Of a stretch of DNA of 64,000 bases, positions 17,701 to 33,635 are shown one piece after another. Position numbers and translations under genes: made by a program. This DNA is from Escherichia coli. GTDB lineage: Bacteria; Pseudomonadota; Gammaproteobacteria; Enterobacterales; Enterobacteriaceae. The stretch lies in assembly GCF_965641715.1 (NCBI RefSeq), contig NZ_OZ282454.1. One strand, given 5' to 3'. Every line of letters starts with the position of its first letter. Position 1 is the stretch's first letter. The notes under the pieces are model-generated. The model was not told the DNA's origin and searched no databases. It saw only the letters and a list, made by a program, of their open reading frames with translations.

Positions 17701-18210
17701 ATGAAAAAGTGGATGTTAGCAATCTGCCTGATGTTTATAAATGGAATCTGCGAAGCCGCCGATTGCTTTGATCTTGCAGGTCTGGATTACAAAATAGACC
17801 CGGATTTACTGAGAGCGATATCATGGAAAGAATCCCGTTACCGGGTTAATGCCATTGGTATTAATCCGGTAACGGGATATGGCAGCGGACTGATGCAGGT
17901 AGACTCCCAGCATTTTAACGAACTGGCCCGCTACGGAATTAAGCCAGAACATCTGACAACAGATCCCTGCATGAACATTTATACCGGTGCCTATTATCTG
18001 GCAATAGCATTTAAAAAATGGGGCGTATCCTGGGAAGCCGTTGGTGCATACAATGCCGGATTCAAAAAGAGTGAACGCCAGAACCGGAGGCGTCTTGCTT
18101 ATGCATCAGACGTTTACCGGATTTATACCGGGATAAAGAGCAGTAAAGGCATCCGGGTTCCGACCACGAAGAAATCACTCCCCCAAATTAACAGTGTGCA
18201 GAACAATTAA
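17701..18210 (+). CDS. lytic transglycosylase GeneX/Orf169 (P19 family)
   Basis: 169 aa with signal peptide and SLT-like motifs (ISWKESRY...GLMQV...AYNAG); first gene beyond oriT. Confidence 0.88.
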
Positions 18211-18468
18211 TATTGTATACATTGTCAAATACCGGTTATGCCGCGACAGCGGCATGGAAGGCCACACACAAAAATATCATATGAGTGATAATGCTGACTG
18301 GCCGAAGCCCCGCAAAGCGGGAACCCATCTTATATATATCCGGTAACTACGCAGCCTCCTGCCAGACCATTTTTCGCGGGCACAATATTTACAGACTACC
18401 GAAAAGCCAGTTGATGAAATTGAGGTATATCAGACGACACAGCAATGCCGCAGGATGATAATATAAGT

Positions 18469-18492
18469 AAAGCCCCGAAAAATTTTTCGGGG
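18469..18492. terminator. palindromic hairpin, possible bidirectional terminator
   Basis: GCCCCGAAAAATTTTTCGGGGC followed by T-rich run; between convergent geneX and ORF 18666-19328. Confidence 0.4.
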
Positions 18493-18665
18493 CTTTACTT
18501 ATATTATCATGACTTCCACTCCCTGAACTGTTCGGCAATCATCCATAATGCTTTGTTGATTCGGATATCACCGTCAATGCCTGTAATTGCTCTTGTTCTG
18601 GTATTTTTACCGGAGGCACTTCGCCCCGATAATCCACCTTTTATCATATTCTCCTGAACCCGCTG

Positions 18666-19328
18666 CTAGGTTGTCCAGAGATCGTTCTGTTTATCCTCCC
18701 AACGGCGGGGAGTAATTATTTGTTCAGGCGTCACTGGCGTTTTATTTTCATCTTCATACCTGACCATCAATGCAGCTCTGCCAAATAAATATTGTTCGTC
18801 ACTGTTAAGATGTATCCCTTTCATTGTCTCCATATTTTCAGTGACTTTATCAAAGACACCGGGCACTTCATACGCTCCCTCAATAACCTGCCCGACAATA
18901 TCACCTTTATGTGGAACGCGGATTTCGCCAAAATTATTCCCGCACACCAGGCCATTTGTGTAGACAAAACGAAAAATTCCTGGGATCATCTGATAACTGG
19001 ATGAACCATCATGTGAATTAAGCAGGGTAATTTCAGGAACTTCTTTCCCGTTAATATGCCCTTCCCTGCGAAGACGTAACATATGTTTACTGTATTCGCG
19101 GCGTCCCAAATCACGAACCCGACTCTGACAGGCAAAGAACGGCTGGAAACCTTCATCACGTAACTTATTGATGATATTGATGGTTGGGATATATGTATAA
19201 CGCTCACTCCGGGATTCATGTTTATCACCAGAAAAAACAGATGGAACAAACTGCATTAATTCGTCATCCGTTAACGGGCGCTCACGGCGAATAGAATTAT
19301 ATCGACCAAAACGGGAAGCTAATCGCAT
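18666..19328 (-). CDS. hypothetical leading-region protein (possibly DUF932-like)
   Basis: 220 aa ORF; family assignment from memory only. Confidence 0.55.
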   Translation of the reverse strand: MRLASRFGRYNSIRRERPLTDDELMQFVPSVFSGDKHESRSERYTYIPTINIINKLRDEGFQPFFACQSRVRDLGRREYSKHMLRLRREGHINGKEVPEITLLNSHDGSSSYQMIPGIFRFVYTNGLVCGNNFGEIRVPHKGDIVGQVIEGAYEVPGVFDKVTENMETMKGIHLNSDEQYLFGRAALMVRYEDENKTPVTPEQIITPRRWEDKQNDLWTT

Positions 19329-19438
19329 AACAGTAACTCCTTTATGAAGGCATAAAATTAATAAAAATTTTTTCGCTTAATATCATCCCCCCTCGGTTAT
19401 CGTTAACAAAAAGACAACAATTCCGAGGGGAAGGACCA

Positions 19439-19735
19439 TCAAATCAGGTCAGTTCGGGACTGACCAACCTGCCGAGTGAAAAGCAGTAACAGCGCGATCA
19501 ACTCATCAGCGTTTTTTCTGACAAGAGGAGTATGATTCTCCAGGCTATCCAGTAAGTCATGCAGCTCATTATTGACCTGGTGGAGCACCTTAAAGAGTGC
19601 ACCAGAATCCCGGCAGCTCTGATATGCAAGGTTTGCCTGAACTGCACGATTCTGCATAATCCCGATTTGTGCGATTGCGTCTTTCTGCTGATCGCCTGTT
19701 GGCTGATAAGTGGTGTTAAAAGAAAATGCGCTCAT
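19439..19735 (-). CDS. hypothetical leading-region protein
   Basis: 98 aa ORF immediately downstream (in transcription sense) of repeat copy A. Confidence 0.45.
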   Translation of the reverse strand: MSAFSFNTTYQPTGDQQKDAIAQIGIMQNRAVQANLAYQSCRDSGALFKVLHQVNNELHDLLDSLENHTPLVRKNADELIALLLLFTRQVGQSRTDLI

Positions 19736-19749
19736 AATTCCTCCTGTAT

Positions 19750-20100
19750 CTGATGTTTTCAGCCCCCATCATCTGTTGAGTTTCGGGACCCGCCGCAACG
19801 ACGAAGAGCGCGTGCGCGAAACGGCGTTGCCCCTTACATCCCGGCGGCTTTTTGCCGGGATGCAAGGAGCGCAGGCCACGGCGCGACAGAGGCGGCGCGA
19901 CCGGAACGGTCGCTGCAAGCCCGGGGTTTTCACGCATCGGACCGTAGCGACAGCCCGAAACCGCGCCAGCGGGTTCGGCGGAGACTGGCAGGTGCGCCAG
20001 CAGCTGCCTGTCGGAGTCGGGCCTGACGACCGGATGCCGCCAGGCAGCCGGGAGCCGAAGGTGCGCCCGGCAGACAGGACAACACTGCTGTAGTCAGAAT
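19750..20100. repeat. Frpo/ssi-like leading-region repeat, copy A (shorter; lacks the 5' block)
   Basis: about 330 bp near-identical to 25431-25770 and similar to 28750-28890. Confidence 0.7.
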
Positions 20101-20351
20101 CAGAGCAGGAAGAAAAAGAGAATAATCACGGGAAAGGTAATGTCATTTCTGACAACTGACCATAAACAGAGAAGGCGGGGGAAAAGAACGGGCGCCGCAG
20201 GCGCACGTTCATCCCCTTTCCCGAAGGGAAAGCGCCTTCCAGGCAGTCTGGTTGTTCATGCCCGTACAATGCCAGCAAGGAGAAAGGGGCCACCGGCGAA
20301 CCAGCAGCCCCTTTATAAAGGCGCTTCAGTGCAGTCAGACCAGCATCAGCC

Positions 20352-20378
20352 CTGAAAAGGCGGGCCTGCGCCCGCCTC
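20352..20378 (-). terminator. rho-independent terminator of hok mRNA
   Basis: minus strand GGAGGCGGGCGCAGGCCCGCC then TTTTCAGGG, just 3' of hok stop. Confidence 0.5.
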
Positions 20379-20385
20379 CAGGTTG

Positions 20386-20547
20386 CTACTTACCGCCGGA
20401 TTCGTAAGCCATGCTTGCCGTAACCTCCCTGTATCCGTCCTTCAGCCGTATTTCGCACAGACGATTCCGGGTCAGGAGTGTGAATATCAACAACGTGCAG
20501 CACACGATTAATACGCACCAGATAAGGGCGTTTCCCGGTAGTTTCAT
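20386..20547 (-). CDS. hok: Hok/Gef family toxin (FlmA/Hok-like)
   Basis: hand translation [53 protein letters not shown] (53 aa); not in supplied ORF track (under 60 aa). Confidence 0.85.
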
Positions 20548-20605
20548 GGTTTACTCCTCCTTGCAATTTGCACGGTAAGAGGCCATACTGACGTGGACTA
20601 GACAT
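20390..20605 (-). CDS. mok: Mok-like overlapping reading frame
   Basis: 71 aa ORF overlapping hok in a different frame, as in hok/mok/sok loci. Confidence 0.55.
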
Positions 20606-21064
20606 GCAAAGGCCTCGTGGGTTAATGAAAATTAACTACGGGGCTTTTGTCCTTCTGCCACACGACAGGATAACAAACCACCTTCACGTCATGAGGCAGA
20701 AAGCCTCAAGCGCCGGGCACATCATAGCCCATATACCTGCACGCTGACCACATTCACTTTCCCTGAAAATAATCCGGTCGTTCAGCCAGTTCACGGGCAA
20801 TCAGTTCATCCGCAAACAGTGGTGCATGCCTGTTGATACGTTTCTCCAGATTCCGCCGTCGTACCACAGCCTTACGTTCTTCGCTCCAGCGGCGCACCTA
20901 GCGGTCAGAAATAAAATCCAGACAGACCGCATACCCTGCACCGGCAACCCAGCGTGACATAACGGATGCCGGTGCAGGCTGCCCCGCCTCCACCACTTCT
21001 GAAACCAGTTCATGCTCGCCAGGACAGGGAGAAGGCAGTTTCCAGCGCAATGAGTAACGCCACT

Positions 21065-21784
21065 TCACGCCGCCTCCCGGAGTTTGTTCGGCACCATCCA
21101 CCGCTCCATCTCACGGACAGCGTGACCGGCCTCTCTTGCTGCAAGACTGGCTTCCGCAATAACCTGCCAGAACGGCATATTCTGCCACTGCCAGCGTTCC
21201 ATTCCGGACAGTGACGGAAAACGCTCGCCCCACTGCCAGAACAGGGTTTCCAGGTCATGCTCTGCCACCCGGTCACTCCAGCGTGCATGCCAGCTTCCGA
21301 CTGTTTCCGGCGAATGGAATGCCAGTTCGATTTCAGCCTGAGCGACCAGCGCCTGGTACGCACGGGCTTTCTGCTCTGCCTCCCGTGCCTGCTGGCGGCT
21401 GTACTTCTGCATGACCAGCGCGGATTTATGGCGACTTCGCTCCCTGACACGAAACCGCACCGACGGAAACACCCCCTCTGCTGCATCACCGGGAAGGGGA
21501 AGGAGGCAGACCTCGCCCTGTGTTTCAATCAGCACATCGATGGCATACAGCCACTGAAGACGGTTGCCGTGCAGTTCTTCTGCGGTCAGGGACGGCATGA
21601 AAAATCGCAGGTCAGACAGCGATATCCTGCGGCTTCCGTTCAGACAGCGGAAAAACGCCCCCGCATACGGATATTCCGCCAGCGTGTTACCCTGATGGCG
21701 GCGTTTTTCTGTCTCCGCCACCGCCCGCCATGCGGCCTGTTGCTCTGTGCTGAGGGGAACCAGTGCCTGTGAACGTGCGCTCAT
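21065..21784 (-). CDS. psiA: PsiA plasmid SOS-inhibition protein A
   Basis: 239 aa, same length as F PsiA; directly downstream of psiB. Confidence 0.9.
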
Positions 21785-22218
21785 ACCTGACCTCCTTCCG
21801 CCATCAGGATATGGATGATGTCGTTAACGCTGTACCCCTGCGTATCCAGTGACGCCGCCAGTGCCAGTGAATGGCTGACTGCTTCCGGTGCAAACCGCCG
21901 CTGCACCTGAACCACCGCAAACGGCTCACCACCGGCATTCACCAGAACCAGCACCCAGACCAGAGAGACATTTCCCGGTGAACATAACGCCAGGTGAAAA
22001 CGTTCGTGGACAGGCGTGAAACGGACCTGGACGGGGAAAAAGCCGCCAAACTCGCTGCCGTACTCGCCGTTCAGCGTCCAATTGTCCGGCGCATCCAGCT
22101 CCCGCATCACGGCGTGTGTCAGCTCACGACGTTCACCACTTCCGGCAGCCCGGATATCCTCATATTCCTGTGCGCTCATGGTCTGTAATACATCCAAGGT
22201 CAGTTCAGTTTTCATCAC
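21781..22218 (-). CDS. psiB: PsiB plasmid SOS-inhibition protein B
   Basis: 145 aa; recalled PsiB sequence ([47 protein letters not shown]...). Confidence 0.92.
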
Positions 22219-22269
22219 GGTATCTCCCTTGCTGCCGCCCCGTCTCCGGCGGGGCGGTGTGGTTGTTCA

Positions 22270-24228
22270 TCAGGCGGCATCAGCCAGGTTATCGGCGCGT
22301 TCAGTGGCATCCGTCTGTGGACGTGGTGAACCCATCCAGCCAGGCACCCAGCGGTTGTCTTTCATGTGGAACTCTGCATGTTCAGCGGCATCGCCTTTCT
22401 TCATCTTCTCCGCGTCCTGTGCGGCACCGGACAGTCCGGCATCATTCAGGGCTGCGATAATCTGCGGCTTTTTCAGGTGTCCGAAGAAGTTTGCTTTCGT
22501 CGGCTGCCACCAGTCGCGCATGTGAAAGCCGATAGCGGTTTCCAGCGAGTCAAGCGGACTGCGTGACGTGTGACCATACTCACGGGTCTGAACACCGTGG
22601 ATGCTGCATGCGGTGCAGAAACTGAGCAGGGATAACAGCACCTCCTGACTGAGTGACAGGAACGTCGTCATGTTCCGTGCCCCCCCCTCCGGCAGCAGGG
22701 CAGCAAGACGGGCTTTTTCTGCCATCATCGCCATGAATGCGGCACCTTCCTTCCCCGATGGCGCATCGCTGGTCAGCGAATAATGTTTACATTCCAGGCT
22801 GATTTGTGCTGGTTTACTGTACGCTCCGCTGCCAAACACATTCAGACAGAGCGTCCATGCCAGCAGTGCCAGAGATTTGTCCGGCTGTTGCATCAGCGCC
22901 GCCTGGACTGCCAGCGTGCGCTCTGAAGACATTTTCGTCAGCAGTGGCAGACTGATTTCCTCCACTGACGCTTTCTCCTGCACCTGTTCCGTGCGGTCAG
23001 CGTCGGCAGCCGCGTCATCCTCGCTGCGCAACTGCACACCACGCTGGACACATACGTTGCCATAACGCCAGGACACCACCACACCGCTTCCGGCACGCAT
23101 CTCCGGCGTCCACGCCATGACCTTCGCCATGCAGTCAATCAGCTTCATTTCAGCTTCCAGCAGGTCGGATTCCTCACAGTGGTTTTCCAGCGCGTCGTAA
23201 CGTGCCATCAGTTCGTTCAGGCGTTCTTCTTCCGCCTCGGTCAGCACCGCTTCCGGCTCCGGCAGACAACGGTATGTTCCGGCATCCTCACGGCAGAAAC
23301 CGACAGGCTCCATACGTCCGGCGCACCATTCCCAGCCTTCAGCTTCCCGAAGGTGTTCAGCGACAGCCTGGAGTTTTTCCAGCAGGGCTGCATCGAGCGC
23401 AACACAGTCCACATAGCCACCCTCGTCGTCGCTGAACAAATCGGTGCGCAGTTCGTCTGGCGAGAAGGCATCAGCCCCCACGAAGCGGAATTTACTGTTC
23501 CCCGCCACCGCCACTTCACTTTCGGTCACCAGACGACGAATGGTCTGCACTTCCGGTTTTCCACCCCATCCCGACTGACAGGCAGCTTCAAACACCTGCA
23601 CCTGACGCGCGGTGTCGTTCTCCAGCGCCAGCGCCTGACAGTGCTCTGTGGTGATGCGGTCTTCTGCCAGCGCACCGAGGATGACTGGTGCAAGGTCTGC
23701 CAGTTTCAGCATTCGCTGAACGTGGCGGGGTGAATAGCCCAGCAAATCACCGATTTGTGCAGGTGTTTTGCCTTCCTGCGCCATTGCGCGGAATCCGGCA
23801 ATCTGTTCGGCAGGGTGCATATCCCGACGCTGACCGTTCTCGGTCAGCGATGCAGCCGTCGCCAGTTCCTGCGGGATAACCTTCACGCGGACAGGCCAGT
23901 CCGCCGGAATGATTCCACGCTCTGCCAGCATATTGAGTGCTGCCAGTCTGCGACCACCTGCGGCGACACCGTGGCGGTCACCTGGCAGGGCATGCACGAC
24001 CAGATTCTGCAGCAGGCCGACGCCTTTAATGGACTCCGCCAGTTCGCTGACTGACTCCGCAGAATACGGCACCGTGCGCACATTCAGTGGTGATTTAATC
24101 AGTGAGGCCAGCGGCACGCTCACTTCCGCCGTCTGCGCCAGCAGGGCTGACAGGGCAGTCTCCTGCTCTTTTGACGGTTTACGGCTGGATTTACGCTCCG
24201 TTTTTGTCTTAGACTCTGTAACTGACAT
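22270..24228 (-). CDS. ParB/Srx-like nuclease-domain protein (F Orf652/YubM type)
   Basis: 652 aa; N-terminal ParB-like region; conserved leading-region position upstream of psiB. Confidence 0.85.
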   Translation of the reverse strand: MSVTESKTKTERKSSRKPSKEQETALSALLAQTAEVSVPLASLIKSPLNVRTVPYSAESVSELAESIKGVGLLQNLVVHALPGDRHGVAAGGRRLAALNMLAERGIIPADWPVRVKVIPQELATAASLTENGQRRDMHPAEQIAGFRAMAQEGKTPAQIGDLLGYSPRHVQRMLKLADLAPVILGALAEDRITTEHCQALALENDTARQVQVFEAACQSGWGGKPEVQTIRRLVTESEVAVAGNSKFRFVGADAFSPDELRTDLFSDDEGGYVDCVALDAALLEKLQAVAEHLREAEGWEWCAGRMEPVGFCREDAGTYRCLPEPEAVLTEAEEERLNELMARYDALENHCEESDLLEAEMKLIDCMAKVMAWTPEMRAGSGVVVSWRYGNVCVQRGVQLRSEDDAAADADRTEQVQEKASVEEISLPLLTKMSSERTLAVQAALMQQPDKSLALLAWTLCLNVFGSGAYSKPAQISLECKHYSLTSDAPSGKEGAAFMAMMAEKARLAALLPEGGARNMTTFLSLSQEVLLSLLSFCTACSIHGVQTREYGHTSRSPLDSLETAIGFHMRDWWQPTKANFFGHLKKPQIIAALNDAGLSGAAQDAEKMKKGDAAEHAEFHMKDNRWVPGWMGSPRPQTDATERADNLADAA

Positions 24229-24291
24229 ATATTTCTCCTTTGACCGGGATGGTTGTATGTCTGCCGGACGCGTTCCCGTCCGGCACCTCTC

Positions 24292-24564
<273 letters not shown>

Positions 24565-24582
24565 TTATCACAGTCAGCCCGA

Positions 24583-25116: not shown

Positions 25117-25140
25117 GATGTGTCTCCTTCTGTTGATGTT

Positions 25141-25770
25141 TTCAGCCCCCATCATCTGTTGAGTTTCGGGAGCCGCGGTTTTGACGTTTTGCGGGGACCT
25201 GCCTTTTGTTCCCTCCGGTATTCACCATCACCTGTTTGAGAACCTTCGCCGCAAGGGGCATCACTGCCACGGCCGGAAACGACTGTCCGGGGGCAGACCG
25301 CAAAAGTTTTTGCCGGCTTTTGGGCAAAAACTTTTGTGGGATGTGCATTTCACCCCTGGACTGACGGAGACGGTTGTGGCTGTCTTTGCCCCCGGCGACA
25401 GGGGTTCAAACAGGTGCAGGGCACCGGACACAACAACGGGCAGGCACCCGCCGCAACGACGTGAAGCGCGGTTTGCGAAACGGCGTTGCCCTCACATCCC
25501 GGCGGCCTTTTGCCGGGATGCCAGGAGCGCAGGCCACGGCGCGACAGAGGCGGCGCGACCGGAACTGTCGCTGCAAGCCCGGGGTTTTCACGCATCGGAC
25601 CGTAGCGACAGCCCGAAACCGCGCCAGCGGGTTCGGCGGAGACTGGCAGGTGCGCCAGCAGCTGCCTGTCGGAGTCGGGCCTGACGACCGGATGCCGCCA
25701 GGCAGCCGGGAGCCGAAGGTGCGCCCGGCATACAGGACAACACTGCTGTAGTCAGAATCAGAGCAGCAGG
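25141..25770. repeat. Frpo/ssi-like leading-region repeat, copy B (full length, about 630 bp)
   Basis: GC-rich, hairpin-rich; directly upstream of ssb in transcription sense. Confidence 0.7.
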
Positions 25771-25972: not shown

Positions 25973-26536
25973 TCAGGCACGCAAACGAATAATCATCGTC
26001 GGAACACGGGTATAAGCAAACGTCCCGCGCGGCAGCTCCTCGCGGATGTCAGAAAACGGTAACAGCTTCTCCTGCTGGCGTGGCCCGTTCAGACAGACGG
26101 CGACCAGCACGCCACCCGGACGCAACAGGGAAAAGGCCCGCAGGATATGCCGGATATCCTGCCCGTGACTGAACGGCGGATTCATGATAATCCGGCTGTA
26201 ATACTGCGCTGGCTGCCAGTCCATGAAGTCATCACACTGCACCCTGACACCGTTAAAATTTTCCCGCAGATACCGGACCAGCCCGCTGTTAATCTCCACC
26301 GCATCACACATGGCCCCCGGCGCGATATCCCGAATCGCCCGCAGTATGGCTCCGGTGCCGGCAGAGGGCTCCAGAATGTGATCATGGTTGCTGATCTCCG
26401 CCAGCGTCACCAAGCGATCACAGACCGGGGCAGGTGTCACAAAGAGCTGAGATTCAGCCCGGATTTCAGCAACCGGTGCAGCGTTATCCAGCCCTGCGCG
26501 CATCAGCCTGATACGTTCTTTTAACTGACTGTGCAT
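25973..26536 (-). CDS. SAM-dependent N6-adenine DNA methyltransferase (small orphan MTase)
   Basis: 187 aa; motif I-like EPSAGTGA and motif IV NPPF. Confidence 0.75.
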   Translation of the reverse strand: MHSQLKERIRLMRAGLDNAAPVAEIRAESQLFVTPAPVCDRLVTLAEISNHDHILEPSAGTGAILRAIRDIAPGAMCDAVEINSGLVRYLRENFNGVRVQCDDFMDWQPAQYYSRIIMNPPFSHGQDIRHILRAFSLLRPGGVLVAVCLNGPRQQEKLLPFSDIREELPRGTFAYTRVPTMIIRLRA

Positions 26537-26583
26537 GTCATTATCTCCGTTATCCCCCGGGGATTTTCCCCGGGGGATAAGTC

Positions 26584-27945
26584 TTATTTCTGCGGGATTT
26601 CCGTGATTTTCATGTCGGTGATATACACATTCACCAGACGGAAATTGTTGTCCATTGTGCGGCGGTAACGATATGCTCCGTGCTCTTCTGTCTCTGCCAC
26701 ACTGCGCACGGCCTTACAGTCCCGGGGCAGGGCGGCCCACTCTGCCTTTGTCATTTCCCGGAAGCCTTCCCCCGGATAGTTGACTACAGGCGGACGCTTC
26801 GCGGCCTGTCTGGCGACAACGGCCTCTTCTGCCGATGGCGCTTTGTAGTCCGTGATGCGATCAGGCGTCACTTTCATCGTGCCACTGTACCCGAGGAAAC
26901 TGTAATTCGGCGTTGTGACTGAACTCACCGCCCCGTTGCTTTTGTTCACGCGGATGATGGTCAGCCACTCGCCCCGGCTGCAAACCTGCCCGCCCGGCTC
27001 AAAATCTTGTGTCCGGGTAACCACGCCGCCGCTTTCGTCCAGCATGGCACGCTCATAGATCAAGCGGTTCTGATAGTGGTTAACCCAGCGTTGCTGACGC
27101 TGAATCTGCCGTTCATGGCAGCGGATCGCAATTTCGCGGGCCTGCTCCGTGGTGATAATGTCATCATCCAGGGCCGACCATAACGATCGACTCCCTTCAT
27201 ACTGGCTTTTTTCTGCCGGGCGCGGATACCTGTCCAGCGGGAAACAGGCACTGATTCGGTCATAACTGCTGATAAGTTTTGCCATATTCAGATCCAGCGA
27301 TTCAGCCCGCCACATCGTCAGATATTTCTGCGACTGTGCGATGGTCTTTTCAGCCTTGCGCAAATCAGCCTCGATTTTTTTGATACGACGCCAGCGAACG
27401 TCCGGACGTTCTTTATACTTCGCGAGAAGCAGTGCCGACCGCGCCCGCGCCTCCCAGTATTCCGCACGTTCAAAGAGCATCACGGCACGTTTCATACCAT
27501 TTTCAATACGCTGCGCATCACGACGGGCGCGGCGTTCGCTGTGATGTCCCACAAGGATCGGCTGACCGGGCGGGATCATCGCGGCCAGTCTTTCCACTTC
27601 ATCAAGTGCCTGTGCGGATTCACTGGCCCGCTTTCCGCTGTATCCGGTAAACCGCTCCGCCCGTGCTTCCTGACGTTCAGCGAGCGTACTGTCTTCATCC
27701 TCAATCTCTCCGGCAAGTGAGAGGAGCACGTCTTCCCGGCCCGGTGTCCAGGCAGGAGCCACAAACAGCGCCTGTTTGGGTGCCCAGCGGAAACCGGCAT
27801 CATGGACTTTTTTATACGTCTCCGGGTCAAGACGTGACGCGGCATACAGGCGCAGTTTGTTGTCATCCGGTGAGTAGGTCGCGCGGTACATCTGCACAGG
27901 GCTGGCGGCTTCCGGGGCGGTCATGGTGATTGCTGCTAATGTCAT
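26584..27945 (-). CDS. hypothetical leading-region protein (possibly DUF3560-like)
   Basis: 453 aa ORF; family from memory only. Confidence 0.6.
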   Translation of the reverse strand: MTLAAITMTAPEAASPVQMYRATYSPDDNKLRLYAASRLDPETYKKVHDAGFRWAPKQALFVAPAWTPGREDVLLSLAGEIEDEDSTLAERQEARAERFTGYSGKRASESAQALDEVERLAAMIPPGQPILVGHHSERRARRDAQRIENGMKRAVMLFERAEYWEARARSALLLAKYKERPDVRWRRIKKIEADLRKAEKTIAQSQKYLTMWRAESLDLNMAKLISSYDRISACFPLDRYPRPAEKSQYEGSRSLWSALDDDIITTEQAREIAIRCHERQIQRQQRWVNHYQNRLIYERAMLDESGGVVTRTQDFEPGGQVCSRGEWLTIIRVNKSNGAVSSVTTPNYSFLGYSGTMKVTPDRITDYKAPSAEEAVVARQAAKRPPVVNYPGEGFREMTKAEWAALPRDCKAVRSVAETEEHGAYRYRRTMDNNFRLVNVYITDMKITEIPQK

Positions 27946-27996
27946 AAAATGTTCTCCTTCCGTCTGTTGCCGCCCCTCGCGGGGCGGCTCACCTCA

Positions 27997-28227
27997 TCAG
28001 TTAAAAGCGCGTTTCAGTTCGAGTGTGCGGAGCACCTGCCCGAAAGCCGTGTTTTTCATGGCGGGGATGTGTACACCACGCCCCCGGTGAAAACTCCGGG
28101 CTATGTGTCGCCCGAAGGCTTTCAGCACGGGGGCAATTTCCGGCGCGGGGATGTCTTCGCGTCTGAAACGGGGATGACGGCGGGGCTTTACAGCCGCTGC
28201 GGAAGGTGAAACAATACTTAAAGTCAT
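27997..28227 (-). CDS. hypothetical small protein
   Basis: 76 aa basic ORF first downstream of repeat copy C. Confidence 0.4.
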   Translation of the reverse strand: MTLSIVSPSAAAVKPRRHPRFRREDIPAPEIAPVLKAFGRHIARSFHRGRGVHIPAMKNTAFGQVLRTLELKRAFN

Positions 28228-28454
28228 AATTTAGCCTCTTATGACGGTTGAATGGAGCCGCAAAAACTGTTCGTGCAGTCTCTGCGGCGTGGATTAAGCA
28301 GGTCCCTGACCTGCTTTTTTCATATCTGCATCTGACGTTCTCCGGTGTTTTCCTCCTTCTGTTCCTGCGTTTTCATTACCTGCCAGCCGGATGACTGGCA
28401 GAATACATAAATGCGTATTGCCGGAGCCTGAAATAAATCCTGATTTTTAAAGAA

Positions 28455-28895
28455 CATCACCCGTTGAGTTTCGGGAGCCGCGGTTTTGACGTTTCGCGGG
28501 AACCTGCTGCTGTATTCCCTGTGGTATGAACTTCACCCGTTTGAGAACCTTCGCCGCAAGGGGCATCACTGCCACGGCCTGACGCACCTGTCCGGGGCAG
28601 AACGCAAAATTTTTTACCGGGTTCTGGGTAAAAAATTTTGTGGGCTGTTCATTTACCCTGGACAGTCAGTGCGACAGGTTGTGGCTATATGAGCCCCCGG
28701 CGACAGGGACTCATACGGGTGTGTGGCACCCGGCAGGCAATGAGCAGGGACCCGCTGCAACGACGGAGAGCGCGTGCGCGAAACGGCGTTGCCCCTTACA
28801 TCCCGGCGGCCTTTTGCCGGGATGCCAGGAGCGCAGGCCACGGTGCGACAGAGGCGGCGCGACCGTTCCGGTCGCTGCAAGCCGGGGGTTTTCGC
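28455..28895. repeat. Frpo/ssi-like leading-region repeat, copy C
   Basis: shares 5' block (GTTGAGTTTCGGGAGCCGCGGTTTTGACG...) and 3' block with copy B. Confidence 0.7.
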
Positions 28896-28931
28896 GCGGG
28901 CTGACAGGCGGCCTCCACCGCCTACCCTGTA

Positions 28932-29123
28932 TCACCTGTGTCTGCTGCCCTGAAGGATGTACTGACCACCGAGGAAAACAGCCTGCTGATTCGCTACAAA
29001 ATCGCAGATTTCATCAACAATCTGCGCGGTGGTGAGCGGTTTCTGTCCCATTTCACGACGCCGCGCATTAATCACGGCCCTGTAATTACGCAGAATTTCG
29101 CGGGTTTCCGTGCTGATATTCAT
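28932..29123 (-). CDS. hypothetical small protein
   Basis: 63 aa ORF abutting the next gene. Confidence 0.35.
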   Translation of the reverse strand: MNISTETREILRNYRAVINARRREMGQKPLTTAQIVDEICDFVANQQAVFLGGQYILQGSRHR

Positions 29124-29542
29124 TACCCGTTCTCCCCGTCCAGCGCCTGACGCATCACCCGCATAATCTCACGTTCTTCCCTGACAAATGCGTCACCGTC
29201 GCCCCCGTTCTCGCACCCGACAGCATGGAGGCGATAAATTTCACTACCAGCCATCACCATCACTTTTTCCAGCAGCACCGCAGGGACTGTTACAAGACGG
29301 TTTACGCGCTTTTCCTCCATCAGTTCATTGACAATATCGGAAACAACTCTGTCACATGCGCCATATACAAAAGCATCGTCCAGCCGCTGCATGACGGTTT
29401 CCAGCTCATCGTCTGACAGGTTCCAGTCCTGAGCCATATGGCGTACATCCCCACGGGTCAGCACTACGGCAAAAACGCATTCACTGTCCGGCACGTCTGT
29501 ATCCAGTACATCGCGGATAATTTCTTTAACAGTACAGTACAT
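29123..29542 (-). CDS. hypothetical protein, paralog of 32231-32698 (possibly DUF1380-like)
   Basis: 139 aa; shares motif NRLVTVPAxLL and acidic character with ORF 32231-32698. Confidence 0.55.
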   Translation of the reverse strand: MYCTVKEIIRDVLDTDVPDSECVFAVVLTRGDVRHMAQDWNLSDDELETVMQRLDDAFVYGACDRVVSDIVNELMEEKRVNRLVTVPAVLLEKVMVMAGSEIYRLHAVGCENGGDGDAFVREEREIMRVMRQALDGENG

Positions 29543-29588
29543 GTTCTCGTCTCCTTTACAGGGGCGGCATTGCCGCCCCGTCCGTTAA

Positions 29589-30014
29589 TCAGTCCAGTGC
29601 CGCATAAATCGCGTTACATTCGGGGTGAAATTCGATGTGGCTCCACAACTGCGCATCACGCATCCTGTACAGGTGTGCCAGCCCTGCGTTACCGCTGTCG
29701 TGGTACAGCCACAACTGGCGGTTAATCACAAGAGACATCAGAATGATGCCTGCGGCATCGGCACTGACCGTGCGGTCAAACCAGTTTTCACCGTTAACCA
29801 GATGAAAACGGTCGCCATCCGGCATCATGTAGCCGCCACCGTCCGGCAGGCGGATGAAATGCCAGAAGCCTCCCTGATATTCCGGCATCATTTTTTTCGC
29901 CAGCGCATACACTGATGCCTCGGCATACAGAAAATCGTTGCCAAACAGGTAAGGCAGAAAAGACAGACGGTCGATTTCTTCAACGTTCAGGGTGACAGAT
30001 TTTGCATACTGCAT
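29589..30014 (-). CDS. klcA: KlcA/ArdB-family anti-restriction protein
   Basis: about 141 aa from MQYAKS; recalled KlcA pattern DRLSFLP...FG...EASVYA...GGFWHF..LPDGGGYM.PD...VNGN...SADAAGI...AIYAALD. Confidence 0.78.
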   Translation of the reverse strand: MQYAKSVTLNVEEIDRLSFLPYLFGNDFLYAEASVYALAKKMMPEYQGGFWHFIRLPDGGGYMMPDGDRFHLVNGENWFDRTVSADAAGIILMSLVINRQLWLYHDSGNAGLAHLYRMRDAQLWSHIEFHPECNAIYAALD

Positions 30015-30120
30015 GGGATTTCCTCCGTTGTTCACATATTCCGCGACATCGGGCGGTGCCGGCGGCGACTTCCTTTGTGCTCTGTCCGGGGACCGGCAGG
30101 AAAAAGGCGGGGATTCTCCC

Positions 30121-31459
30121 CATAAGCGCTAACTTAAGGGTTGAACCATCTGAAGAATGCGACGCCTCGGTGCCTCGTTAAGACGATGCCTCGCGTTCTT
30201 CAATTGCGTTTTGTAGGCTGTCAGGGATACTGTCCCACGAATGGCCACCTGTAAGCTCCAGATGACCATTTTTGTTATTCTCCACAACGAGTTAGTTCTT
30301 CTTTTCGGATCCGGCACTTCTGGGGGGGAAATCCAGCGATGGCTGGATTATGTCGTCAATTAAAAATGCGGCGAGTAGATTAGCAAATATCCACGCTTTC
30401 GCGAGTTCAGGTTCCTTTGCACGCAAAGCATCCAGGTGCAGCAAACTTTTGAGCCGCTTAAAAGCCAGTTCAATTTGCCATCGCAGACGGTAACAATCAG
30501 CCACTTGCTCTGCTGAATATTCATCTTCCGGTAATGATGTTAGCAATAGCACATGGCCCGCTGCTTCCAGCGTTTCCGCCTGAACTACTCGTCCTTTTCG
30601 ACGATTCTCGCTGAGCAGTCGGGTTTTACTGATTAATGCTTTTTCGGGAGGAAGTGATACGGCAATGAGACGTGCCGGAAAGGGAGCTCCGGCTTTTTTA
30701 TTACCTGAATTGCCTATCATTACAGTGGTTTCACCGTTCTTACCGCAATCCAGCCCGCGCAGAAAACCCATCATGTCAAAGCGCATTCCTTCTGCAGTTA
30801 ACCAGCGCAATCCTCGCCAGTGAACCCGGACGATATAATCAGCTTCTCCAAAAGCAAGTGAGCGGATACATTCGGGACGCGAACCGAATCCCCGGTCAGC
30901 AATGCGTATCTCGTCTGCCGTTTGCGCAAATCGGTCCAGCCGTTCAGCGTCTCTGCTGTCGGTTAGCTCAAAATCAGTGAACTGACAGGTATGAGGATCA
31001 TATCCCATATGTAGTCGCCATTCAGCGCTGCCGCCCCCGGGCGCACTGATTGCTGTTCCATCGACAAGACGCAATCTCTTTCCGCTTGTACAACCCGTAA
31101 CTGCGGCGCGTACAGCAAGTGTTTGTGCGGCAAGTATGCCAAACCAGTCGGCGGCATTCCGCAGCCGCTTCAGGAGAGCCACGTCAGATAATGTTGCAAC
31201 GTCATGGAGCTGAGCCCATGCAGTGACTTCACGTAATGACATCCCCCCGGGGCCGTAAGCCAGCCCCAGACGTAGCAGAGTTGCAGCATCACGAATTTCG
31301 CGGCGGCGGGTTAGAGCCCCGGCATTACGTGCCGAAGTATCCAGTTCTTCGGGCTTACCAATATGGGCCAGAATTGCTGACCAGTTATCGTGAGAGTAAT
31401 TCATCGGCACGTTAAATCATATCAGGCGTAATACCACAACCCTTAAGTTAGCGCTTATG
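30121..31459 (-). mobile_element. IS186 (IS4 family), complete, with target-site duplication
   Basis: 1339 bp; terminal inverted repeats CATAAGCGCTAACTTAAGGGTTG (30121-30143) and CAACCCTTAAGTTAGCGCTTATG (31437-31459); flanking direct repeat GGATTCTCCC(C). Confidence 0.9.
30292..31410 (-). CDS. IS186 transposase
   Basis: 372 aa ORF matching recalled IS186 transposase (MNYSHDNWSAILAHIGKPEELDTSARNAGALTRRREIRDAATLLRLGLAYGPGGMSLREV...). Confidence 0.92.
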   Translation of the reverse strand: MPMNYSHDNWSAILAHIGKPEELDTSARNAGALTRRREIRDAATLLRLGLAYGPGGMSLREVTAWAQLHDVATLSDVALLKRLRNAADWFGILAAQTLAVRAAVTGCTSGKRLRLVDGTAISAPGGGSAEWRLHMGYDPHTCQFTDFELTDSRDAERLDRFAQTADEIRIADRGFGSRPECIRSLAFGEADYIVRVHWRGLRWLTAEGMRFDMMGFLRGLDCGKNGETTVMIGNSGNKKAGAPFPARLIAVSLPPEKALISKTRLLSENRRKGRVVQAETLEAAGHVLLLTSLPEDEYSAEQVADCYRLRWQIELAFKRLKSLLHLDALRAKEPELAKAWIFANLLAAFLIDDIIQPSLDFPPRSAGSEKKN

Positions 31460-31477
31460 GGATTCTCCCCGCCATCA

Positions 31478-32185
31478 TCAGCCCCTGATTTTTGCCAGGG
31501 CATCCGCCATGCTGCGGATTTCGACCCGGGCTTCCCGGACAACTTCCCGCAGAACACCACGGTCAAACCACCGGCGGGACGGTTCATCCAGTATACGCAG
31601 CACATCGCAGGCCAGCCCACTGGCCAGGATATGCTCAATACAATCGCTGACCAGATACATTTCCACCGCCGAAAAACGTGCGCCCCGGTTCAGAATGGCA
31701 TCGAGCACCACGGGCAGGTTTTCGTCGTCTTCATCGAGCCAGCAGGGGTGATCGCTTTCCTTCACGACCAGGCGAAAGCGGCGCGTCTGGCGGGTCAGCA
31801 ACGTCTGACCGCTTGTGGTCAGCGCCGCCCGGATACGCCGCGCATCTTCTGCCAGCCATTCGCCGGCATACGGGAAAGACACCTGCGTTTCGTCTGCCGG
31901 AAGTACCGGAAGCGACTGCCACTGACTGCCGGACAGAACAAGTTCCGCTCCGGTTCCGGTCAGTTTCTGAATGGCGGAGGCCAAGTGCGGCGGCAGTACG
32001 CCGCCGTGGCGGTTGATAAGTAACGTCGCCAGCCGGGGCGCATCCAGCCGCACGTAAATGCTGATCCAGCCCGGATACTTCGGGTTCCGCTGGTCAACAT
32101 CCGTCTCTTCCGGCCAGCCCTGCGCCAGTAGCAGGTTACGAGCGTGGCGATAAATCAGTGCATTCAGCGTTGTGTTTTCGTTCAT
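31478..32185 (-). CDS. hypothetical leading-region protein
   Basis: 235 aa ORF ending 18 bp from the IS186 right end. Confidence 0.55.
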
Positions 32186-32230
32186 GATTAATCGTTCTCC
32201 CTGTATCGCCGCCCGCAGGCGGCGATAACA

Positions 32231-32698
32231 TCAGTCGTTTTCGTGTGTGTTGTTTTTCAGCAGGGTGCGGGCCTGATTAACCACCGCCTGACGGCGGGTA
32301 ACGCATTCCGGGACGGCGAGGCCGTAATCACGGGCGGCCCATTCACGTTTCCACAGTGCCTGTTCGGCGGTCTGAATCAGGGACGCCAGCAGTTCAGCCG
32401 GGACGGTCACCAGGCGGTTTTCTCTCACGTTATTGATGATCTCCATCGCCACGCCGGAAGATATACCGGATTCAGTCCGCTGGTCTTCCGGGATGTCCTC
32501 CAGACGCGCCAGGACGGTCCTGATTTCATGATCGGACAGGGAAATATCCATTCCGTCAGCGAGGGCCTGAATCTCTTCCGGGGACCAGATAACCAGCATC
32601 AACGGCGTGTCTCCCGGATACTTTGCTGCCAGCGCCCGGCACAGCGTTTCGCATGTTCCGTACATTCTCATCTCCTTCTCAGTCTTTAAAGCACGCAT
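32231..32698 (-). CDS. hypothetical protein, paralog of 29123-29542
   Basis: 155 aa; shared NRLVTVPAELL motif. Confidence 0.55.
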   Translation of the reverse strand: MRALKTEKEMRMYGTCETLCRALAAKYPGDTPLMLVIWSPEEIQALADGMDISLSDHEIRTVLARLEDIPEDQRTESGISSGVAMEIINNVRENRLVTVPAELLASLIQTAEQALWKREWAARDYGLAVPECVTRRQAVVNQARTLLKNNTHEND

Positions 32699-32900
32699 CC
32701 AGTTCCAGAATTTCGGTATATGCCTCCATCAGGAGGCGGTTTGCGCGAAACAACGTCTGACGCACCAGACGTTCCGGCAGGGTGTCAGCATTAAAGCTGT
32801 ACCGCCGCTCCATCTCATTCATGGTTGTACGCAGGTCGCACATGACATTGGCCACCTCCGCCACTTCGGCGCGAAGTATTTCGTGTCCGGCATAGTTCAT
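32679..32900 (-). CDS. hypothetical small protein
   Basis: 73 aa ORF, translationally coupled position. Confidence 0.4.
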   Translation of the reverse strand: MNYAGHEILRAEVAEVANVMCDLRTTMNEMERRYSFNADTLPERLVRQTLFRANRLLMEAYTEILELDACFKD

Positions 32901-33635
32901 TTACGCAGCCTCCGGCATAAACCAGTCATCATTCGCGGCCCCCTGCTGCATGGGCCGTTGCACGGCGGCAAGGCGTTGCTGCCCGGCACGGTGATACTGC
33001 TCAAGCAGCTCGATACCGATATACCGGCGTCCGGACTGGAGGGCGGCGACGCAGGTTGAGCCGCTGCCTGCAAACGGGTCCAGCACAATTGCGTTCGGGT
33101 GTGTGAAGCTCTCAATCAGCGGTTACAGGCTGGTAACGGGCTTTTCCGTCGGGTGATGGCGATTGCCCGAATATTTCCAGCCCAGCACGTCCGGCGGCGG
33201 GTTTTGTGGCAGACGTGGACGGCCTTTTGCCAGGATGTAGGCGCATTCGTGGCGATAGCCCACATATGCGGCCTTCGATGTGTAGTTTTTGGTGAAGACC
33301 AGGTGACCAACAACGCTGAATCCCGCATTTTTCCAGGCGGCCATAAAGCGATCGGCGCGGTTCCAGCCGTAGAAGCTGACCATCAGCGCATCTTTTTTGA
33401 GTACGCGGAACATTTCATTACAGGCCGGTTGCAGCCATTCATCGGTTTTATCGCCGGCAATGGTACGCCCTGAACGGTCACGGACCCCCACCAGGTAAGG
33501 CGGGTCGGTAAGTATGAGATCAATGGCGTTATCAGGGATACGGGCCATAACATCGATGCAGTTACCGAGGACAAAACGGGACATAACAACTGTATGAACG
33601 CATCCCCGTTTGCAAGGCATCCGTTGTTCTGACAT
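32901..33635 (-). pseudogene. beta-class DNA methyltransferase interrupted by in-frame ochre (TAA) at 33123-33125
   Basis: upstream ORF has DPPY and ...HHPTEKPVTSL; after TAA the same frame continues PLIESFTHPNAIVLDPFAGSGSTCVAALQ (motif I). Confidence 0.75.

Follow-up and report, generated by a model that had tools for sequence, protein, structure and literature searches.

The DNA that follows the transfer origin in our window (a 64,000-nt stretch of Escherichia coli DNA, contig NZ_OZ282454.1) very probably serves an E. coli plasmid of the F kind (IncF; IncFIA/FIB, MOBF) as its leading, or establishment, region, in a copy that is partly disabled. The circuit of this copy has lost its Frpo1-position and ssp2 hairpins, carries IS421 and an IS110-family element, and contains two nonsense-bearing genes. 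The anatomy of the region, its homology, hairpin folding, deletions, a gene fusion and purifying selection were all observed here. The system itself is known, and its interpretation is already published (Samuel et al. 2024, Couturier 2023, Wen 2025); our additions to the literature are the proposed DUF3560/methyltransferase split, the hairpin deletions, and the decay of this copy by IS elements and nonsense mutations.

Results

We take GTGGGGTGTGGTGCTTTT to be the F nic sequence and used it to place the nick at 17601-17618, where the + strand exactly matches the F oriT nick sequence GTGGGGTGT|GGTGCTTTT (0.04 matches expected by chance). Because the nick sequence lies on the + strand, it marks this strand as the transferred one, and the + strand 3' of the nick enters first, toward higher coordinates. 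Below 17.3 kb, the minus strand carries traM, traJ, traY and traA, with FinP and the traJ 5' UTR at 16.7 kb. The preliminary description had placed nearly all genes from oriT outward on the minus strand, with the entering + strand as their template, and both statements hold: from the nick to 36.3 kb, 21 of the 22 genes are minus-strand genes, for which the transferred strand is the template. The sole + strand gene in this span encodes an SLT lytic transglycosylase (17701-18210; F orf169/gene X; Pfam SLT, E 1.4e-21; pN/pS 0.11). The range first described ended at 33635, but the island runs on to about 36.3 kb, which adds a hairpin at 35084-35308 and a minus-strand DUF1281 (YubB/Api92-like) gene (35409-36302; Pfam DUF1281, E 1e-26, plus DUF1281_C) that closes the conserved island distally.

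The whole region is 100% identical to CP057088 except for IS421, and more than 5000 plasmids carry it at 90-95% identity, colinear with F and pSE11-2. Compared with F (NC_002483, 53.1-66.2 kb), gene order and orientation are colinear, with 76-99% nucleotide identity per gene. The members named in the F leading region are Frpo1/Frpo2, ssp2, ssb, yfjA, yfjB/herB, psiB, psiA, flm, ygeA, ygeB and orf169. F and the window share an identical nick sequence, class-1 Frpo repeats upstream of ssb, the opposite orientation of the SLT gene, and a conserved hairpin ahead of the DPPY methyltransferase gene. Unlike F, the window contains a further module driven by Frpo (a 76-aa ORF, DUF3560 and a 187-aa methyltransferase) and a non-homologous 98-aa gene at the ygeA position; it lacks the Frpo1 long hairpin and ssp2, has gained IS421 and the IS110-family element, and bears nonsense codons in ygeB and the DPPY methyltransferase gene. 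The DUF3560 module, with the 98-aa, 76-aa and 187-aa methyltransferase genes, occurs as in the window in pSE11-2 (NC_011413) and thousands of IncF plasmids. On its distal side, the island of pSE11-2 ends with a DUF1281 gene, after which come dinI/umuD; unlike the window, pSE11-2 retains all three Frpo-type (class-1) copies and full-length DUF932 and DPPY methyltransferase genes, and its island is free of IS elements.

Known early functions had been proposed for the region, and profile matches bear out most of them, all on the minus strand. These are psiA (21065-21784; NCBIfam PRK13704, 418 bits against a cut-off of 243), the SOS inhibitor gene psiB (21781-22215; PRK13701, 264 against 100), the plasmid ssb (24583-25116; PRK13732, 366 against 265) and the type I toxin-antitoxin locus hok/mok/sok (20386-20715), with hok at 20386-20547 (NCBIfam 103 bits, cut-off 73), mok at 20390-20605 and a match to the sok family (Rfam RF01794) at 20545-20715. 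The klcA/ardB anti-restriction gene (29589-30014; Pfam Antirestrict, E 2e-25) is 91.5% identical in nucleotides to F yfgB, whose function is treated in a preprint (10.64898/2026.01.09.698686). The gene for the 652-aa ParB-like protein (22270-24228; ParB N-terminal domain) is 92% identical to its F counterpart across 1959 nt, with a pN/pS of 0.20. The protein had been counted among the known early functions of a probable anti-defence island, but it is an orthologue of F YfjB/HerB, which reprograms host transcription and lowers the cost of acquisition, and whose deletion leaves transfer frequency unchanged (PMC13370423). By analogy with F, the ParB-like protein is HerB and would act as a host reprogrammer, not in anti-defence.

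One of the two genes first described as orphan methyltransferases needs correction. The N6_N4 (DPPY) DNA methyltransferase gene (32901-33584, minus strand; NCBIfam PRK13699, 330 bits; Pfam N6_N4_Mtase), which corresponds to the M.EcoGIX-type gene of F, is a pseudogene with a nonsense mutation at codon 154 of 227 (33123-33125), before the DPFAGSGST motif. The ORF at 33123-33635 that had been read as this enzyme takes its first 17 codons from the end of an IS110-family element. This element (33589-35031, minus strand), delimited by comparison with F and with its transposase annotated in CP057088, sits directly ahead of the ATG of the methyltransferase gene and cuts it off from its Shine-Dalgarno sequence; the transposase gene of the element (33863-34882) is not an island gene. 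The element now parts the methyltransferase gene from the conserved long hairpin at 35084-35308 (+ strand; z -4.2; 93% identical to F; conserved at 90% or more in no fewer than 5000 plasmids), a candidate class-3 ssDNA promoter. Class-3 promoters stand upstream of M.EcoGIX homologues (PMC12672017). The second insertion is IS421 of the IS4 family (30122-31458, minus strand), upstream of klcA, with inverted repeats and the 12-bp target duplication GGGATTCTCCCC. Its site is empty in CP057088, and CP082637 carries IS421 at the same position with a different target allele; its transposase gene (30292-31410) likewise does not belong to the island. The second nonsense-bearing gene is a DUF932 pseudogene of the F ygeB/YubP family (18507-19328, minus strand; Pfam DUF932, E 5.9e-40), in which TGG has become a stop at codon 221 of 273 (18666-18668) relative to the 273-aa F and pSE11-2 proteins.

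Two class-1 ssDNA promoters are intact, both on the + strand. The first, at the Frpo2 position (25138-25587), is 96% identical to F Frpo1, contains a long hairpin at ~25163-25485 (MFE -134 kcal/mol, z -8.1) and lies upstream of ssb-DUF905-herB-psiB-psiA. The second (28455-28896; 91% identical to F Frpo2; hairpin ~28476-28780, MFE -139 kcal/mol, z -8.5) lies upstream of the genes for the 76-aa protein, DUF3560 and the 187-aa methyltransferase. The class-1 hairpins are 87-96% identical to F Frpo, and none of 100 shuffles folded as well. Their consensus comprises 115 pairs in 7 copies, with 7 compensatory pairs, and a consensus scan found no canonical -35/-10 pair in the hairpin.

Two further promoters have lost their hairpins. 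At the Frpo1 position, a class-1 remnant persists (19738-19928, + strand), from which the long hairpin of ~264 nt has been deleted between GGGA microhomologies; alignment with intact copies shows the loss, and folding gave a z of -1.9, against -8 in the intact copies. At 30053-30062 we found a deletion scar of the class-2 promoter ssp2, where F has a 289-nt segment with a hairpin of ~240 nt (z -6.3). The ssp2 hairpin is missing before klcA, and a search of the entire window gave no match to it. Could these losses be assembly artefacts, long palindromes having collapsed in an island that is in fact intact? Long palindromes are difficult to assemble and to clone, and of 72,556 plasmids, at least 5000 have kept the ssp2 hairpin and 2 show the junction without it, both from related farm isolates that a single project sequenced. 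However, two like hairpins were assembled intact in the same sequence, each junction falls on a short direct repeat (GGGA or GCCG), as slipped-strand deletion would leave it, the Frpo1-position junction recurs in 282 independent PLSDB plasmid records, in some at other positions, and decay is also indicated by independent nonsense mutations and IS insertions. We therefore consider an artefact very improbable and genuine deletion the better reading. Loss of the hairpins need not abolish expression of the downstream genes, which read-through from upstream operons or IS-borne promoters could still drive.

All nine interleaved ORFs of the preliminary description that lacked an assigned function were found at its coordinates, with two amendments to start sites: 24292-24552 is annotated as starting at 24525, and 32231-32698 may start at 32665. 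Each has a Shine-Dalgarno sequence, and for eight of the nine pN/pS is 0.1-0.45 in the annotated frame and mostly ~1 or more in the other frames; the 76-aa ORF has too few substitutions for a judgement. On these two criteria the nine ORFs look like real genes. All are on the minus strand. The 98-aa ORF at the ygeA position (19439-19735; 'YeiA' in UniRef; pN/pS 0.34) is 68% identical to a 98-aa protein of pSE11-2, has no Pfam match and gave no BLASTP alignment with F YgeA, to which it is unrelated in sequence. The DUF905 gene (24292-24525; F yfjA; YkfF/YubL family) matches Pfam DUF905 (E 3e-31) and PDB 2HJJ YkfF (E 6e-19). A 63-aa ORF (28932-29123; pN/pS 0.11-0.13 against F and pSE11-2) has no family match in NCBIfam, PADLOC, PHROGs or Pfam. 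Two DUF1380 paralogues are 30% identical to each other (E 3e-10): paralogue a (29123-29542; 139 aa; pN/pS 0.30), with a weak Pfam DUF1380 match, has a pI of 4.4 and a net charge of -14, and paralogue b (32231-32698; 144-155 aa; Pfam DUF1380, E 5e-53) is also acidic. Natural 375-aa fusions in 11 clusters join paralogue b to the 235-aa protein of the 'YchA' family (31478-32185; F yffB by position; pN/pS 0.25-0.44; phrog_8919, function unknown), which has 438 homologues, with identity of at least 76% among the 120 listed, named only from Escherichia, Shigella and Salmonella. The 73-aa ORF (32679-32900; pN/pS 0.26 against F) matches phrog_4830, also of unknown function.

Discussion

For ssDNA-dependent transcription, its timing and the protein functions, we infer the following course from the literature on F and pESBL. 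TraI would nick the + strand at about 17609/17610, and this strand would enter the recipient 5' first, with 17.6 to 36 kb arriving earliest and single-stranded. The class-1 Frpo/ssi palindromes (25.1-25.6 and 28.5-28.9 kb) would fold into stems of ~115 bp and serve as promoters for RNA polymerase. The co-oriented operons would be transcribed before the complementary strand is present and silenced after its synthesis, as in zygotic induction. SSB would then coat the incoming DNA, PsiB/PsiA would block RecA and the SOS response, KlcA/ArdB would inhibit type I restriction, orphan methyltransferases would pre-methylate DNA, HerB would transiently reprogram host transcription, and Hok/sok would penalise loss of the segment. 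In F, Frpo1/2 drive early expression (PMC9849209), and the leading region has three ssDNA promoter classes and four operons (PMC12672017; 10.64898/2026.01.09.698686). pESBL/ColIb-P9 (IncI1; PMC12672017, PMC7736820) carries class 1, 2 and 3 ssDNA promoters and M.EcoGIX. The window shares this operon logic, and its DPPY methyltransferase gene is homologous to the M.EcoGIX-type gene of F and preceded by a long hairpin, as in pESBL/ColIb-P9, but its class-2 element is deleted and its class-3 candidate is severed from a methyltransferase gene that is itself dead.

An earlier study described the islands of leading regions, with their orientation, and termed them anti-defence islands (PMC11541004). 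The families of the window appear, as uncharacterised and enriched in leading regions, in Supplementary Table 1 of that study (Samuel et al. 2024), DUF905, DUF1380, DUF3560 and DUF1281 by DUF name and the remainder, such as YchA, via gene name or position. Unlike those islands, the window contains no recognised anti-CRISPR gene and lacks the distal umuCD boundary, and several of its early units are inactivated. The proposal that this interval is an anti-defence island fits in its framework of KlcA/ArdB, PsiB/PsiA, SSB, methyltransferases and minus-strand operons. Its extension to the nine unassigned ORFs drew no support from the tests run here: profile searches in NCBIfam and PADLOC gave no match, those in PHROGs gave only families without a known function, and PDB sequence searches with five of the nine returned a single match, a hypothetical protein, for DUF905.

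We regard it as rather unlikely that most of these ORFs are new anti-defence proteins, each inhibiting one recipient immune system. They are placed and oriented like klcA, psiB, ssb and the methyltransferase genes and co-transcribed with them, they are under purifying selection, their families rank among the largest enriched in leading regions, and the acidic DUF1380 paralogues adjoin klcA and a methyltransferase gene. However, known anti-defence proteins give no homology or structural match, the precedent of HerB is a host reprogrammer, and the lineage tolerates lost early expression of several of these genes.

Alternatively, the ORFs could quite possibly be establishment factors without a counter-defence role; functions in host-physiology reprogramming, incoming-strand handling, complementary-strand priming or early-operon regulation are conceivable. 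The one such gene to be solved recently, YfjB/HerB, reprograms host transcription. Deleting ygeA or Frpo1 in F cuts conjugation 4- to 25-fold between isogenic K-12 strains (PMC9849209), an effect that appears without any differing defence barrier. Anti-defence families were unmatched here, and Samuel et al. found essentially no sequence or structure match between these families and anti-CRISPR and anti-restriction sets (PMC11541004). On the other hand, bona fide anti-restriction and anti-SOS genes sit in the same operons, anti-defence genes are statistically enriched in leading regions (PMC11541004), and F without the ssp2-driven operon pays a 5- to 36-fold or greater cost in restricting or non-isogenic recipients (10.64898/2026.01.09.698686). 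The DUF1380 proteins are also strongly acidic, as DNA mimics are, although this is a resemblance only. The DUF1380 pair, DUF905 and the 63-, 73-, 76-, 98- and 235-aa proteins are best described as putative establishment factors, some of which may be anti-defence.

The ninth ORF belongs to the module past the second Frpo copy. The first gene of this module encodes a very basic 76-aa protein (27997-28227, minus strand; 'YdaB', pI 12), conserved in pSE11-2 and in a cluster of 1103 members. A + strand match to the Rfam antisense RNA AS-pc01 (28222-28319; RF02875, 107 bits against a gathering score of 79) is antisense to the 5' end and leader of this ORF. Two minus-strand genes follow, for a 453-aa DUF3560 protein (26584-27945; Pfam DUF3560; pN/pS 0.11) and a 187-aa class I SAM methyltransferase (25973-26536) with the motifs EPSAGTG and NPPF. 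The catalytic domain of the latter resembles N6-adenine methyltransferases. The families closest to it in sequence, which score below the cut-off, are rRNA adenine methyltransferases, and its substrate may be DNA or RNA. Of 150 distant homologues, about 90 unite DUF3560 and a methyltransferase domain in one chain. The methyltransferase domain is collinear in 73 of 74 DUF3560 homologues of 601-720 aa and in 15 of 16 longer ones. We propose that DUF3560, as the non-catalytic half, and the 187-aa protein, as the catalytic half, are the split form of one adenine methyltransferase.

The AlphaFold2 model of DUF3560 has a pLDDT of 93.8, and comparison with solved folds returned no structural relative; therefore, it is the fusion alone that argues for a DNA-binding role. 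From this fusion, the most likely role of DUF3560 is that of a partner that binds DNA for the 187-aa N6-adenine-type methyltransferase or directs it to its target, and the two halves, once split, could have diverged in function. If this assignment is true, DUF3560 belongs to the methylation arm of the island.

Results

The interval 17701-33635 is the leading region of an F-type plasmid

A megablast search of 17701-33635 against 72,556 plasmids returned at least 5000 matching records, and the matches listed are mostly conjugative plasmids of Escherichia, Klebsiella, Salmonella and Shigella at 90-95% identity. The top match, E. coli pRHB38-C15_2 (CP057088; IncFIA/FIB, MOBF, MPF_F), is 100% identical, and the sole departure from identity over 17701-33635 is about 1.3 kb in the window without a counterpart in CP057088. 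CP057088 and F (NC_002483) share one gene order, with traM-traJ-traY on one side, followed by SLT/orf169, DUF932, hok, psiA, psiB, the ParB-like gene, DUF905 and ssb. Moreover, blastn showed that F and the window are colinear over 16.0-36.1 kb. Because of this shared gene order and colinearity, we assign the interval to the leading region of an F-type plasmid.

Rfam placed FinP and the traJ 5' UTR at 16.7 kb. The F nick sequence, which we take to be GTGGGGTGT/GGTGCTTTT, has a single exact match, at 17601-17618 (+), where chance alone predicts 0.04 matches. The island directly adjoins the oriT nick on its leading side, with the tra operon across the nick. Since the 5' end made at the nick leads into higher coordinates, the + strand is the transferred strand, and therefore the template of the minus-strand genes. 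Both this and the near-uniform minus-strand orientation from oriT outward had been proposed in the preliminary description, and both are borne out: 21 of the 22 genes from the nick to 36.3 kb lie on the minus strand. The sole + strand gene, SLT/orf169, is oriented likewise in F. Of six leading genes tested by Couturier et al. 2023 (PMC9849209), the YgfA fusion alone was expressed only after conversion; by analogy, and without equating ygfA with SLT/orf169, the opposite orientation of SLT/orf169 fits this result.

On the distal side, no umuCD boundary follows DUF1281 in the window, unlike in the related plasmid pSE11-2 (NC_011413), which has dinI/umuD there; umuCD is a frequent, not an obligatory, distal boundary of leading-region islands. 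Past about 37.6 kb, rearrangement sets the window apart from CP057088, and accessory genes within 36000-60000 include an AIDA-I adhesin with its heptosyltransferase, tet(A), a Tn3-like transposase, and IS481 and IS66 elements.

The known early genes are in place

PsiA, PsiB, SSB, Hok, a DPPY DNA methyltransferase and the ParB domain passed NCBIfam cut-offs, and Pfam additionally identified Antirestrict (KlcA/ArdB), SLT, DUF932, DUF905, DUF3560, DUF1380 (twice) and DUF1281. KlcA/ArdB, PsiB, PsiA, SSB and the methyltransferases are thus present as the preliminary description had listed them. The Antirestrict domain (PF03230) spans the full length of KlcA/ArdB (E 2.2e-25), and klcA is 91.5% identical in nucleotides to F yfgB; inhibition of type I restriction is reported for the R64 ArdB/KlcA homologue and inferred for F yfgB (10.64898/2026.01.09.698686). 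The hok/sok locus is complete, with the Hok toxin ORF, the overlapping mok and the sok RNA region (Rfam sok family at 20545-20715).

The ParB-like protein carries a ParB domain at residues 15-220, and its gene shares position and 92% nucleotide identity across the whole 1959 nt with F YfjB. Judged from sequence, it is the orthologue of F YfjB/HerB. A July 2026 preprint (PMC13370423) describes YfjB as HerB, a reprogrammer of host transcription that lowers the acquisition cost, and at least one conserved leading gene is therefore not anti-defence. The earlier reading of the interval as a probable anti-defence island is right as a framework, which is already published. Leaving the intergenic hairpins aside, single-strand folding is predicted to be strongest within the herB coding sequence, at 23600-24050, where the raw energy on either strand reaches -85 to -90 kcal/mol per 350 nt.

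Two class-1 single-strand promoters are intact and a third has lost its stem

In F, early and transient expression is driven by Frpo1 and Frpo2 (Couturier et al. 2023, PMC9849209), and transcription on ssDNA, ending after conversion to dsDNA, was shown in the same work. Wen et al. 2025 (PMC12672017) and a 2026 preprint (10.64898/2026.01.09.698686) distinguished three classes of promoter and four operons in F, and showed that in restricting recipients the ssp2 element, located upstream of yfgB (ArdB/KlcA), makes a difference.

The F Frpo repeat (class 1) matches the window on the + strand at 25138-25587, upstream of ssb, and at 28455-28896, ahead of the genes for the 76-aa, DUF3560 and methyltransferase proteins, with 87-96% identity. 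The predicted folds are -134 kcal/mol (z -8.1) and -139 kcal/mol (z -8.5), respectively. Both intact copies form stems of about 320 nt on the + (transferred) strand, each upstream of a co-oriented operon, and a 115-pair consensus stem is kept in 7 copies from three plasmids, with seven compensatory pairs. The 76-aa/DUF3560/methyltransferase module with its Frpo copy is found in the window and not in F. A consensus sigma-70 scan of the Frpo hairpin gave no -35/-10 site, and we therefore leave these elements unassigned; by eye, the 5' arm of the stem contains the partial hexamer candidates TTGACG-N17-TTTTGT and TTGAGA-N17-CATCAC.

The long stem-loop is absent at the Frpo1 position (19738-19928). 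About 264 nt are gone, exactly the long stem, between GGGA repeats, leaving a local z of -1.9. This hairpin-less junction occurs in 282 plasmid records. Not all of them concern the Frpo1 position: NZ_CP010123.1 (69172-74239) carries the junction upstream of ssb, with an IS110-family element immediately adjoining. The long stem has therefore been lost at more than one Frpo position, and IS110-family elements recur in the Frpo neighbourhood.

A 68-aa ORF lies wholly inside each class-1 Frpo hairpin, at 25142-25348 (-) in the window and at 2421-2627, 8083-8289 and 11397-11603 in a comparison plasmid locus (L003). NCBI names it 'single-stranded DNA-binding protein' (cluster of 686 members), and it offers 1-4 substitutions to the selection test. 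It is probably a mis-annotated promoter element. Its identification with YdaB/YdfB/YgdA, the largest family of Samuel et al., which would have made that family spurious, is unsupported, as the name YdaB belongs to the 76-aa ORF.

The window carries a partly decayed leading region

The F ssp2 hairpin (class 2) lies between yffB and yfgB, with z -6.3. In the window, this 289-nt segment is absent between the yffB-like gene and klcA (local fold z -0.9) and has no match anywhere in the 64 kb. The junction, at about 30053-30062, is clean with GCCG microhomology. Only 2 of 72,556 plasmids have the ssp2-less junction, whereas the hairpin persists in 5000 or more, with an identity of about 95% or higher.

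A hairpin at 35084-35308 (z -4.2), conserved at 90% identity or better in no fewer than 5000 plasmids, is a candidate class-3 promoter, positioned as expected for an M.EcoGIX-type methyltransferase. Between this hairpin and the DPPY methyltransferase gene lies a 1.44 kb IS110-family sequence (33589-35031), which separates the AAGGAG from the ATG of that gene. The DPPY motif is kept, and a nonsense codon at 154 removes the AdoMet-binding DPFAGSGST. With its reading frame interrupted and its Shine-Dalgarno sequence parted from the ATG, a complete M.EcoGIX-type enzyme is absent; of the two orphan methyltransferases noted earlier, the DPPY one is broken. A 'hypothetical protein' annotated upstream of the DPPY methyltransferase (window 35101-35445 (-); F 53784-54089; many plasmids) overlaps the 35084-35308 hairpin and may not be a gene.

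DUF932/ygeB has a nonsense codon at 221 of 273, so that the window holds a truncated ygeB whose promoter hairpin is gone; in F, ygeB could not be deleted alone. At the ygeA position the window carries a non-homologous replacement, the 98-aa 'YeiA' (19439-19735; F counterpart 64032-64319), common to pSE11-2. Deletion of ygeA in F lowers conjugation (PMC9849209).

IS421 (30122-31458) is inserted about 100 nt upstream of klcA with a 12-bp duplication, GGGATTCTCCCC. Its site is empty in CP057088, and apart from this one insertion the interval is identical to that deposited plasmid. IS421 occupies exactly the same position in a Salmonella plasmid whose target allele differs and whose ssp2 is intact: the alleles are GGGATTCTCCCC in the window (30110-30121 and 31459-31470) and GGGATTTTCCCC in the comparison locus L004 (12711-12721 and 14060-14071). 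The target is a small palindrome, terminator-like, that follows the 235-aa gene, and insertion at the same position in two lineages with differing alleles suggests that this palindrome is an IS421 hot spot. In sum, the window copy is a partly decayed leading region.

The nine uncharacterised ORFs are genes without recognisable anti-defence relatives

An AGGAG/GGAG-type Shine-Dalgarno sequence precedes each of the nine ORFs. Comparison of the window ORFs with F and pSE11-2, at 2-23% nucleotide divergence, gave pN/pS of 0.11-0.44 in the annotated frame for eight of them, versus about 1 or more in most shifted frames. The values were 0.11 for DUF3560, 0.11-0.13 for the 63-aa ORF, 0.26-0.29 for the 73-aa ORF, 0.29-0.38 for DUF1380b, 0.30-0.33 for DUF1380a, 0.34 for the 98-aa ORF, 0.36 for DUF905 and 0.25-0.44 for the 235-aa ORF. 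The 76-aa ORF, with five substitutions in all, has too few for pN/pS. The Shine-Dalgarno sites and the low pN/pS therefore indicate that these ORFs are real and under purifying selection, the 76-aa ORF being unjudged by pN/pS.

None of the nine gave a significant sequence or structure match to characterised anti-defence proteins (Acr, Ard, Ocr-like and others) in the searches made here: NCBIfam and PADLOC gave no significant match, PHROGs matches were to families of unknown function only, and a PDB sequence search with five of the nine returned solely DUF905 against the hypothetical protein YkfF (2HJJ). A literature text search by DUF names found no functional study. The suggestion that these ORFs occupy anti-defence positions thus gains nothing from known anti-defence families in NCBIfam, PADLOC, PHROGs or PDB sequences. 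Supplementary Table 1 of Samuel et al. 2024 (PMC11541004) places the window families among the largest leading-region-enriched families: DUF905 ranks 2, DUF932/YubP 3, ParB 5, DUF1380/YcgB 7, YchA 10, YcgC/DUF1380 14, DUF1281 27 and DUF3560 28. Judged by position, the 63-aa and 73-aa ORFs seem to correspond to ranks 6 and 11. For the window families, that study reports essentially no matches to anti-CRISPR or anti-restriction sets.

A homologue search named the 235-aa protein YchA. Natural fusions of DUF1380b with this YchA-family protein (375 aa) occur in 11 protein clusters (P0163, P0174, P0183, P0235 and others; window 31478-32698). In two single-contig proteins (P0152, P0204) the 235-aa protein is fused to an N-terminally truncated KlcA, implying deletions that span the ssp2 region in other plasmids. 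At 28222-28319 (+), a match to the Rfam family AS-pc01 (RF02875, 'antisense to pHK01_035'; 107 bits, gathering score 79) runs antisense to the leader and start of the basic 76-aa ORF. Antisense RNA may therefore control this ORF, which comes first after the second Frpo copy.

DUF3560 and the 187-aa methyltransferase may form a split enzyme

A full HMMER scan gave 3854 DUF3560 relatives. Among the best 150 representatives of these, a methyltransferase-like C-terminal domain is present in 73 of 74 relatives of 601-720 aa and in 15 of 16 longer ones. The fused domain is 40-47% identical to the 187-aa methyltransferase of the window, the order is collinear, and precomputed Pfam domains of one fused homologue are DUF3560+MTS. 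Contigs encoding fused homologues are short or unannotated, one being probably phage, and their gene context shed no light on leading regions. In IncF plasmids the two are separate ORFs, each with its own Shine-Dalgarno sequence and low pN/pS.

The 187-aa protein has motif I (xxGxG), motif IV (NPPF) and a Rossmann fold closest to adenine-N6 methyltransferases; this catalytic half carries no target-recognition module. Because the two are fused in most homologues, we propose DUF3560 as the supplier of target recognition. AlphaFold confidently modelled DUF3560 alone (pLDDT 93.8, pTM 0.83) and a natural fusion (pLDDT 93.1, pTM 0.77) with a DUF3560 part comprising a small alpha/beta domain, long helical hairpins and a beta-rich domain, a fold for which we found no solved relative. 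We infer that DUF3560 would be the non-catalytic partner of a putative split orphan adenine methyltransferase, and that it probably engages nucleic acid.

Discussion

Taken together, our data confirm, with corrections, the observed layout of the interval and partly support its interpretation, which is already known: F-type leading regions, transcription from the transferred strand, and enrichment in anti-defence and uncharacterised families have all been published. In the proposed mechanism, genes for establishment and anti-defence would undergo zygotic induction from single-strand promoters. This mechanism rests on experiments with F and pESBL, and the anatomy of the window agrees with it.

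We advance one joint proposal tentatively, as possible and somewhat closer to doubtful than to probable. DUF3560 and the 187-aa protein would be a two-subunit orphan adenine methyltransferase, its DNA-engaging half having a fold that lacks a solved relative; made from a single-strand promoter, it would methylate the incoming plasmid before restriction enzymes act. In addition, at least one of the acidic DUF1380 pair and the 63-, 73-, 98- and 235-aa proteins would inhibit a recipient defence system of an undescribed kind.

The split methyltransferase and the promoter-deleted lineage are minor, testable leads. Through the split pair, DUF3560, which belongs to the larger uncharacterised families of leading regions, would gain a functional assignment. 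The window lineage, having lost ssp2, one Frpo hairpin, the DPPY methyltransferase and DUF932, is a natural multiple knockout. Such a lineage could gauge the weight of zygotic induction and anti-restriction outside the laboratory and, ssp2 being a roadblock to replication in F, could tell whether the hairpins carry a cost.
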